64,000 nt of DNA from Somniosus microcephalus (Eukaryota), in contig CM126212.1 of assembly GCA_052327205.1 (NCBI GenBank), positions 187,798,001 to 187,862,000 of the forward strand, read 5' to 3'. The translations under genes were made by a program, and so were the position numbers. How positions within the stretch are numbered: position 1 is the first letter of the stretch; every line of letters begins with the position of its first letter. Shown here one piece after another: positions 13,301 to 16,300 of this stretch. The notes under the pieces were generated by a model, which was not told where the DNA came from, searched no databases, and worked only from the letters and a program-made list of their open reading frames with translations.

Positions 13301-16300
13301 AGACGAAAGCAACGCAGAATACTTGGTCGAACTGCGTAGACTAGCGAAATACTGCCAGTTTGGAGGGAATCTGACAGAGGCATTGCGAGACAAGTTCGTG
13401 TGCGGGTTGGCAAAGGAAGGAACGCAAAAGCGACTACTCGAAGAGAACGACCTTACACTTGACAGGGCTGTCCTTATTGCAGCATCGCACGAAGCCGCAG
13501 CGAAGGGAACTGCGGAAATGCAGCTAAAGACAGCAGCACTAAGTGTGGATCAAATTACCTCGACAACAACAAAATGCTATCGTTGTGGGAAGACAACACA
13601 CGACCAGAACCAATGCTGGTTTAAGAACCAGGAATGTAGGAAATGTGGCAAACTGGGTCACATAGCTAAGGTATGCCGGTCAGGGAAGAAGACCAACAAC
13701 CAAAGGACCAACAACCAAAGGAAGCCATCACAGGAAAGGTACAACAAGGTACACAAGGTGGCTGAGAAGAGTTCAGACGAACAGAATTCAGACTCAGACC
13801 CAAACGGCCAGGAGCTGGGTAGTCTGAGAATTCACAATGTGAGTAAGGAAGCTGACCTACAAACTATCTGGGTCATGCTGAAAATAGCTGGAATCCAAGT
13901 GAAAATGGAGTTGGACACTGGATCAGCTCTATCAGTCATAAATCGAAGGGATTACCACTGGCTATTCTCACATATACCCTTAAGAGATACCAAGTTCGTA
14001 TTGCAGACATACACGGGGCATAAAGTATACCCCATGGGAAAGATAAGAGTCAAAGTGAGAGATAGGGGTAAAGAACACCCAAGAATGAACTTATACGTAC
14101 TACATGAGGGAGGACCACCACTTCTATGACGGGAGTGGATCAAGAAAATAGACATGGAATGGCACTATCTAAAAGCCACAACGAGTGAGGACTCGGTGCA
14201 GACAAGCAGCTCAGATTCTGAAACGGATGACGATAAGACCAACCCAAATATGAAAGACAAGGCTGAAATGGACTTGCCGACGAAGGTTGGAAAAACGAAG
14301 GCATGCATAAAGGCTTATGCTCCAGAGAAGAACAAAGTTTCAGAACAGAACTCCACCGAACAACGACAACAATTAGAACAATTGAGTTACCGTCTCGTAC
14401 AAGAGATGAAAACAATGAAAAAGTTCTATGACACCGAATGGGAGAATCTGGAAAGACAACAGAAGCAGCTAGCTCAAGCAGAGAGCGACCATAGAGCCAT
14501 CGTGACCAATTACCGATCACATCTCCCTTATGATGTTCAGGAGTTAGAATATTTGCATGATCTAGAGATACAGCATAAAGGCAAACCACGCTACACTGAG
14601 GATTTTGTTCTGCAATTGGAGATGGAGCTAGTGCAGGCAAGGTTAAGAGAAGCTGAATCGCAGTGTGCACTTAAAGAGATGCAGAAAAAAATCTTGGACA
14701 TAGAAAAGAGAAACGCTTCTTTACCTGATGAGAATAATGTGGCCATGTTGCAAGAGGAGCTTATAGGGGCGAAACTGAAAGAAGCTAAGCAAGGGATGTT
14801 GGAACTTGAAACACAGAACCAAATCAGCAGTAACCAGCTATGTCGAGCAGAGAAGGAGTGCAATGGTCTACAGGAGAAGGTGCAATATCTCTCAGCCCAG
14901 AATAAGGGACTACTCACTCAGTTAAATGAAAGTAAAGGGAAAATGGCTGAGATAGACTGCAAGAATAAAGAAGATTTGATGGCAGTGAGACTTCGAGAGG
15001 CAGATAGCATAGCAGCCTTGGCTGAACTCCAACAGAAAATTGCGAAAGAAGCAAATGAAGAGGAATCTTCAGGAAGCCAGGATTTTATTCCAGTTCTTCT
15101 CTATGACTCCTTACAAGCAGAGTGTGAGAAGTTGAAAGAACAGTATGAACAGGCCCAGGCTACAATTCTGGAGGGGGTTAACTCGGCAACCTCCGAAAAG
15201 CTAGTTTCAGTAGAAGCATATGAGCAACTAAAGGTTGAACATGAGCAAGAAGTCCAAAGGCTGCAGGAAATTCTTGATGAGCTCAAGGCCAAGACAGACT
15301 CATCGGTAGAAGTTCCATCCATAGAGGAGAAATTAGAGGTGAAAGACATGGCAGAACATGAAAGGCAAGATGTCCAAGAACTCAGAAAATTATTGAAGGA
15401 AACCCAAGACAAATATGAGGCGGCAATGACCGAGGTTCAACAACTTGAAGAACAGATTCAACTGGGAACCCGTTCAGCGGAAGAAAAGGAAACTGTAAGA
15501 AACACAGAGACTGTAAGACATGAGCTAGAGAGCATCATGGCACAAGAGCTAGATAGCATCATGGCACAACTTCTCCGAGCGCTGAAAGCCAAAGTCCAAG
15601 AGGAAAAGAAGGTAAAAGCATTGGAGGAAAAGGTGGATGAAATGGAGAAGACTCTGATTCACAGTGTTCCCGCGGAAGAGTTAACGGTCAGCCAACTCCT
15701 TCATATGTTGAGGGACAAGACTCTGCAATGGGAACAATCTGAACACGAGCTTCAATCTTCAGAGGGAAGGAGTTCGGAGCTCTCAAAAGTTACGGATATA
15801 GCTGAGGGTGCAACACGGATTTTACTGGGATGCCAAAAGTACGCTGAATCACGTCAATGGGAACAACAGACTGTTGAAACAGATGCTCCAGTAGAAGGAT
15901 TGAATAGCCCGATCAATCAATCTCCGATGGAAGGGGAAGTATTGAAGTCATTAGTGAAGGATTTGCAGGAAACCCAGGAAGAGTGGGATGAATATGAACA
16001 CATAAAGAAGTCTCTTCAGGAAAGATGTCTAGGGAGGGAACAACAGTCGGCTAACGTCCAGTTGGGTAAGGAAGAAGTAGCAGGTCCTCTCGCTAGACTA
16101 GCTCAGGATGACACCGAATATTACCATGACCTGTTGAGTGACACGGAATATTACGAGGACTTGGTCTGCCCAGCTTGTGATGAAAACTCCCAAAGTGCAG
16201 AAATCAGGATGAAGCACTTAAAGTCTAAAGAACATAGGGAGATGGTGGCGCTACAGCTGGCAGCTGATAAGGGAGCCCCGAGAGTCTCCAAGAAGCAAAA

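Follow-up and report, generated by a model that had tools for sequence, protein, structure and literature searches.

A circularly permuted EVI5 exon block nested in a high-copy non-autonomous Gypsy retrotransposon of a shark

The element and its captured gene pieces

The window, that is, the whole stretch of 64,000 nucleotides that was analysed (G000:C11:187,798,001-187,862,000, in a genome of 6.45 Gb), houses a piece of EVI5 inside a young non-autonomous Gypsy LTR retrotransposon at 11797-16930, all features of which are on the forward strand. The Ty3/Gypsy features present are two 254-bp LTRs with TG...CA ends (5′ LTR, 11797-12050; 3′ LTR, 16677-16930), which form a direct repeat with 1 mismatch, a 5-bp target site duplication (11792-11796 and 16931-16935), a primer binding site (PBS; 12052-12061, presumably tRNA-Ser-like) whose motif is identical after the LTR in other copies, and a polypurine tract (PPT; 16664-16675). 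Gag, with two CCHC knuckles, and an aspartic protease were assigned to 13005-14182 on Pfam matches (zf-CCHC, Retrotrans_gag and Asp_protease_2) that are weak and under the curated cut-offs, and no reverse transcriptase (RT), RNase H or integrase was found among the Pfam matches of the element. A single frame runs from 13005 through gag and protease to a stop at 16323-16325; it is interrupted in the window copy by an in-frame stop at 14127-14129, and in many other copies it forms one open frame of ~1,100 aa. The frame closes with a basic C-terminal tail (16257-16325, stop included).

Several further features were observed in and around the element. Its 5′ UTR harbours a 113-bp tandem repeat in 2.5 copies (12551-12825), and its tails are always K/R-rich yet differ among sublineages (window 16257-16322; loci L093, L154, L157 and L158). 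The left flank (11600-11720) resembles a LINE RT fragment, which we take to be CR1-type. The interval 25062-25595 holds a GC-rich 25-bp tandem array and, after it, an inverted repeat of 64 nt whose loop measures 16 nt. No tRNA was found in the 64-kb window.

EVI5-derived DNA occupies 14558-15043. A preliminary description of the window had placed an intronless EVI5 segment at 14541-15044; EVI5 does lie there, but 14541-14557 are the start of an ankycorbin exon. The EVI5-like peptides that it quoted are in frame at the place given, and its choice of donor was borne out, as protein matches and the DNA match to the host gene (G000:C3:347.968-348.014 Mb; 200 kb of the locus read) agree: the best matches of residues 150-310 of protein P0002 are to cartilaginous-fish EVI5 (E 7.8e-71; 2,917 proteins at E ≤ 0.001). 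Cartilaginous fish likewise provide the best protein matches of the ankycorbin, optineurin and STK10 pieces. When compared with host exons A to E (135, 141, 159, 147 and 96 nt; 678 nt in sum, spanning 45 kb in the host), the piece shows 9 mismatches across six exon pieces from the five exons and no intron; it crosses four forward exon junctions, so it does not lie within one genomic exon.

The exon order is circularly permuted, a property that the preliminary description overlooked. The initial 16 nt of the piece (14558-14573) are the 3′ end of exon E, identical to the host exon end at 16 of 16 positions and unlike the natural upstream exon. At 14573/14574 this donor end abuts base 1 of exon A, which lies upstream in the host gene, forming a back-splice junction; in exon A, a difference between host and element falls within 12 nt of it. 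Next, at 14574-14774, come exon A in full (135 nt) and 66 nt from the start of exon B (5 and 0 mismatches, respectively), and then the end of exon C, exon D (147 nt) and the first 80 nt of exon E at 14775-15043 (1, 3 and 0 mismatches). The piece stops at base 80 of exon E (15043), one base short of its own start point. Judged from the sequence, it amounts to a full turn, circularly permuted, of exons A to E taken as a circle of 678 nt, with 192 nt missing (678 − 192 = 486 nt, or 162 codons). Exons A and E are each single in the 200 kb of host locus, and no exon outside the A-E block was found in the EVI5 copies compared. The E-to-A junction was present in 63 of 63 examined loci containing exon A, among which 20 had been chosen by the junction (some of the loci being duplicates), while the first 30 loci had been chosen by sequence outside it. 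A 32-mer across the junction had 1,426 genome matches at ≤2 mismatches (control, 0), which is a lower bound.

The missing 192 nt were removed in frame at a joint at 14773/14774, from the middle of exon B to the middle of exon C. A loss of about 60 residues near 14787 with the frame kept had been proposed; the frame and the approximate size hold (64 codons, seen as a 64-residue gap in the protein alignment), but the position is that of the joint given here. Microhomology, raised in the same description, is present, with a 2-nt exact overlap inside an imperfect repeat (14 of 18 nt, counted by eye). Neither end is a splice site and no GT/AG is found, and therefore the native splice isoform that had been offered as an alternative is ruled out. 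The 64 codons are absent from all copies seen: a genome search with a pattern from within the 192 nt matched the host exon only, with no match in any examined element locus. A second in-frame EVI5 deletion, of 150 nt (50 codons; 14763-14914), was observed in 3 of 20 sampled copies. In agreement with the earlier reading, no TBC domain (PF00566) was found among the Pfam matches of the element, and the piece does not qualify as a functional Rab-GAP.

EVI5 is flanked by other donors. Decayed STK10 remnants (14183-14470; 77-90% identical at the DNA level to three exons of host STK10) are followed by an ankycorbin/ANKRD24-like second-last exon up to its splice donor (14475-14540) and by 17 nt from the start of the big exon of ankycorbin (14541-14557), joined back-to-front: at 14540/14541 the donor of the second-last exon meets the acceptor of the big upstream exon. 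The big exon continues past EVI5 at 15044-15681 (92.8% DNA identity to the host exon at G000:C13:62.862 Mb; protein P0124, E 8.7e-76). It is followed by decayed, intronless optineurin exons (15675-16079) and a captured C2H2 zinc finger (16164-16256; zf-C2H2_jaz, E 0.043, and E 1.8e-8 in a less decayed copy). Eight EVI5-less loci join 14560 directly to 15046, which indicates that EVI5 was inserted into an earlier ankycorbin piece, 17 nt past the ankycorbin back-splice junction; the insertion point shows a 4-nt match, offset by one base. The EVI5 piece is thus one layer in the nested mosaic of a high-copy retrotransposon and not a one-off capture.

Among the matches listed, an STK10-only subfamily carries STK10 residues 375-709 and then 290-392. 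In the three copies read, five exons are 97.6-99.4% identical to the host and the last donor is joined exactly to the first acceptor, with no exon from outside the block in the copies compared. The 11-nt entry site recurs 1,245 nt later in all three, and 1,245 is the sum of the five exons. STK10 accordingly reads as a full 1,245-nt turn and as the apparent founding capture of the mosaic lineage; at its entry point, pol-bearing relatives share 12 nt with STK10. The six optineurin exons are trimmed at both borders, the first lacking its initial 8 nt and the last its final 4 nt, and the borders match STK10 over 9 and 7 nt. They lack a back-splice junction, and this may be because the ends are in different phases, so that a whole turn would shift the frame. 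The ankycorbin capture is not a full turn. Across the donors, non-collinear junctions of a donor to an upstream acceptor were found for EVI5, STK10 and ankycorbin, and intron loss across exon junctions for EVI5 (four forward junctions), STK10 and optineurin.

For the zinc finger, no donor was found: a PF21884 locus on contig C17, presumably DNAJC2, was rejected after no convincing match was found over ~56 kb. PDB returned 0 matches, and Atlas gave generic C2H2 clusters only, with recognition below threshold. We take DNAJC21 to be a candidate donor. A different insert follows the protease at loci L155 and L148 (G000:C1:14.81 Mb), where a C2HC-like finger (ZNF512_C2HC, E 0.02), possibly a sixth donor, precedes STK10 pieces. 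In the host, one optineurin exon (L085:4346-4539; G000:C17:85.885 Mb) is in two reading frames and one base short relative to element copies and shark orthologues, as an assembly error or an allele, and one STK10 intron (L076; G000:C8:167.19 Mb) starts with GC instead of GT. Family members also lie in or adjoin donor genes (L053, L055 and L080, at ankycorbin and STK10 loci), a placement that density alone predicts at so high a copy number.

Family size, transcription and selection

A motif at the protease end had 46,586 genome matches at ≤3 mismatches (control, 0). Among the first 30 exact-match loci on contig C1, 13 continue into pol and 17 bear host mosaics, 4 of the latter with EVI5. The pol-bearing relatives have the order protease-RT-RNaseH-integrase, LTRs ~83% like those of the window over most of their length, and the same PBS and PPT motifs. 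In a sample of 20 EVI5 copies (every fifth of 100 matches listed), both LTRs were present in 16 and were 97.6-100% identical, with an exact 5-bp duplication in 14 of these 16; an open frame of at least 1,062 aa was found in 8 of the 20.

In two RNA runs carrying the species label of the best DNA match, every one of the 30 bins between 12900 and 16931 was covered. In the run that appears stranded, depth over EVI5 was ~200 on the sense side versus ~20 on the other. These reads pool many element copies with host mRNA, and host circles are not separable in them from element transcripts; the element-only joint of the 150-nt deletion was spanned by 56 and 52 reads, respectively. Runs X5 and X11, under two other organism labels, yielded contigs with intronless EVI5 pieces and with both EVI5-plus and EVI5-less joints, and the capture is therefore common to related species. 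Element-encoded mosaics were not evident in proteins of other species (10 matches from 1.84 billion representatives), nor among the protein matches of EVI5, ankycorbin/optineurin and STK10, a length-limited comparison that does not imply absence.

Selection was assessed on 65 loci against one real copy, with variants in three or more loci counted as shared; the counts are not corrected for the relatedness of the copies or for recombination between them, which makes the p-values rough. Shared-variant w was 0.10 for gag and 0.24 for protease. The captured pieces of STK10, EVI5, ankycorbin and optineurin gave 0.45-0.75, similar to singletons, whose values in the main regions were 0.48-0.69 (p 0.5). 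Weak purifying selection on the captured parts, as a raw w of ~0.5 might suggest, was rejected, since singletons show the same value. Stops in the captured part were found among 0 of 214 shared changes but 15 of 414 singleton changes (p 0.004). Clustered gaps between sublineages sum to multiples of three, whereas 11 of 15 singleton gaps do not, with some gaps split by the alignment. Finger and tail together had 19 synonymous and 10 non-synonymous shared changes (p 0.015 versus singletons). For the tail with its stop, shared variants were 10 synonymous to 4 non-synonymous.

Thus gag and protease, which can be read as working in cis, are under purifying selection, while the captured coiled coils drift. 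As the coiled coils drift yet hold no shared stop, it is the reading frame that is kept and not EVI5 function. The coiled coils probably serve as a drifting spacer that must stay readable, perhaps so that translation reaches the basic tail, for which a nuclear or nucleic-acid-binding role is possible, or so that the stop is held near the 3′ LTR and RNA decay is avoided. The EVI5 coiled coil could instead have been kept for use in the fusion protein, either in oligomerisation or as a decoy for host EVI5 partners, given that the frame is preserved in all lineages seen, that sense transcripts cover the EVI5 piece and that all named donor pieces are rich in coiled-coil or linker. We regard such a use as unlikely: shared EVI5 variants are 4 synonymous to 12 non-synonymous (w 0.75 versus 0.49 for singletons), the 64 deleted codons are gone from all copies seen with 50 more gone in 3 of 20, and EVI5 is absent from 26 of 30 family loci.

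Origin of the permuted captures

The captures probably arose, at a rough probability of 0.8, by RT template switching onto co-packaged host circular RNAs. Back-spliced circles are the usual source of junctions between an exon end and an upstream exon, and three back-splice junctions and two full turns are present in this lineage. RNA-mediated capture had been put forward in the preliminary description, and the introns lost at four junctions support it; what changes is the template: for EVI5 it was most probably a circle rather than a fragment of mRNA, because the piece holds a back-splice junction and copies one whole turn.

In such a process, a Ty3/Gypsy lineage would have lost pol and would be copied in trans by pol-bearing relatives, with host circular RNAs co-packaged in the particles. 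The RT would leave the element RNA at a short sequence match, move onto a host circle, run around it through the back-splice junction and then return to the element RNA. As the entry site recurs on the circle, one short match could serve both entry and exit and would give exactly one permuted turn. Insertions of one exact turn with zero loss or with a duplicated site point the same way, because only a circle (or an RNA with tandem exons) offers the same match twice. The series would have run from STK10, replacing RT-RNaseH-integrase, through optineurin, the zinc finger and ankycorbin to EVI5 inside ankycorbin, with the 192-nt EVI5 deletion being a putative slip between two internal repeats of coiled-coil code. 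Survivors would be those products in which the gag-protease frame is not closed early; a circle with a length of 3n nt (678 or 1,245), copied once all the way round, would preserve that frame without further change.

The matches at the switch points are of 12 nt (STK10), 9 and 7 nt (optineurin) and 4 nt, offset by one (EVI5), the last being weaker than the 6-nt median in the accessible text of Tan et al. (PMC5131818). At the ankycorbin junction, the exon end and the intron end share 5 nt, and taken alone it could be a switch on pre-mRNA.

A linear RNA with repeated exons, generated by trans-splicing and captured by the same template switching, holds the same junction and would yield the same product as a circle, including the same single turn where one match is shared by entry and exit. 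It would, however, have to be invoked for three genes, while circles are the ordinary origin of such junctions. A human EVI5 circle of 339 nt has in addition been reported, in the accessible part of the source, equal to exons D, E and F here (147 + 96 + 96) in a match by length only. Linear templates of this kind are quite improbable. Any reverse transcriptase might also have turned circular RNAs into DNA circles, which would afterwards have entered element DNA by recombination at a short match; a single crossover would likewise leave one permuted turn flanked on either side by the match, and the STK10 site is duplicated. Yet all captures examined are in one element family and in sense orientation, and optineurin and ankycorbin replace element sequence between two different matches, as described for LTR template switching in the accessible text of PMC5131818, so that we hold DNA circles to be very improbable.

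The element does undergo internal deletions and tandem duplications. The permutation could in principle be imitated if a captured linear mRNA had later been duplicated and partly deleted within the element, or if the exon block had been tandemly duplicated in the host genome. For this the breaks must have hit splice sites to the base in three genes (to 16 of 16 nt at EVI5), in the face of single host exons A and E and of EVI5 and STK10 captures without any exon from outside the block, and it is scarcely credible. Switching onto circular RNAs is therefore the reading retained here. We also lean towards a wider version of it, in which circular RNAs rather than mRNAs are the preferred cargo of the family: with a single match for entry and exit, and with phase-matched circles that keep the frame, a 1,100-aa chimeric polyprotein would have been built serially and come to occupy some percent of a vertebrate genome; the family would thereby hold a fossil record of germline circRNAs and supply the missing mechanism of circRNA retrotransposition.

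Relation to known systems

Acutely transforming retroviruses are defective, carry gag-onc fusions with host exons in place of pol and need a helper. The shark element resembles them in being defective, in having host exons fused to gag that replace pol and, probably, in needing a helper, but it is without env, is not infectious as far as seen, and its captured part drifts and is not selected cargo. With the Mag lineage of Ty3/Gypsy, as described in the accessible text of PMC3286476, it shares a size of ~5 kb, short LTRs, 5-bp duplications, a Ser or Leu primer and, in some members, 5′ UTR tandem repeats; placement in that clade is a matter of resemblance (5-bp duplication and PBS) and not of RT phylogeny. 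Maize Bs1 is likewise non-autonomous, an LTR element whose hybrid ORF is made up of pieces from three host genes, but the accessible text of the review (PMC13317346) mentions no back-splicing for Bs1 and has 0 matches for circRNA terms.

LTR-mediated retroposition (Tan et al. 2016, PMC5131818) is closer. As far as its accessible text goes, host exons there also replace internal ORFs between LTRs and form multi-gene chimeras that are often in frame and undergo further non-autonomous rounds; short matches mark its switch points, as they do those of STK10 and optineurin and, more weakly, that of EVI5. The study takes its templates to be mRNA (its main text has 0 instances of 'circular') and describes few-copy cases, whereas the shark captures are back-spliced, comprise whole turns and are nested five deep, and their family has been amplified to thousands of copies with gag and protease still selected. 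For circRNA-derived pseudogenes such as that of mouse circRFWD2 (Dong et al. 2016, PMC4897178), the accessible text gives 33 high-confidence copies, with LTRs enriched in the flanks and a mechanism called mysterious. The shark captures bear the same diagnostic non-collinear exon junction, no poly(A) and LTR sequence alongside, and by their junctions they fit circRNA-derived retrocopies. They differ in lying inside complete elements with target duplications and in the survival of the parent and of intermediates; the points of entry and exit can moreover be seen, and a single lineage shows such junctions for three genes.

In the literature searched, which lay outside subscription journals and Repbase, no description was found of this shark family or of any LTR family that captures circRNAs serially. 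The route from circular RNA back to DNA had been left open when circRNA-derived pseudogenes were described (accessible text of PMC4897178). In the shark genome the parent still exists alongside intermediates and products, and the sites of entry and exit can be read to the base, which makes the mechanism testable computationally on tens of thousands of copies. Capture of circRNA would add a route of exon shuffling, and the captures may date circRNAs in a lineage with little RNA data. Caution is also called for, as junction reads from such elements will be miscalled as circRNAs, and their frames as paralogues of EVI5, STK10 or ankycorbin. Relative to the known systems, what is new is the combination of LTR-mediated retroposition with circRNA-derived retrocopies, for three genes in one lineage and with parent and intermediates present.
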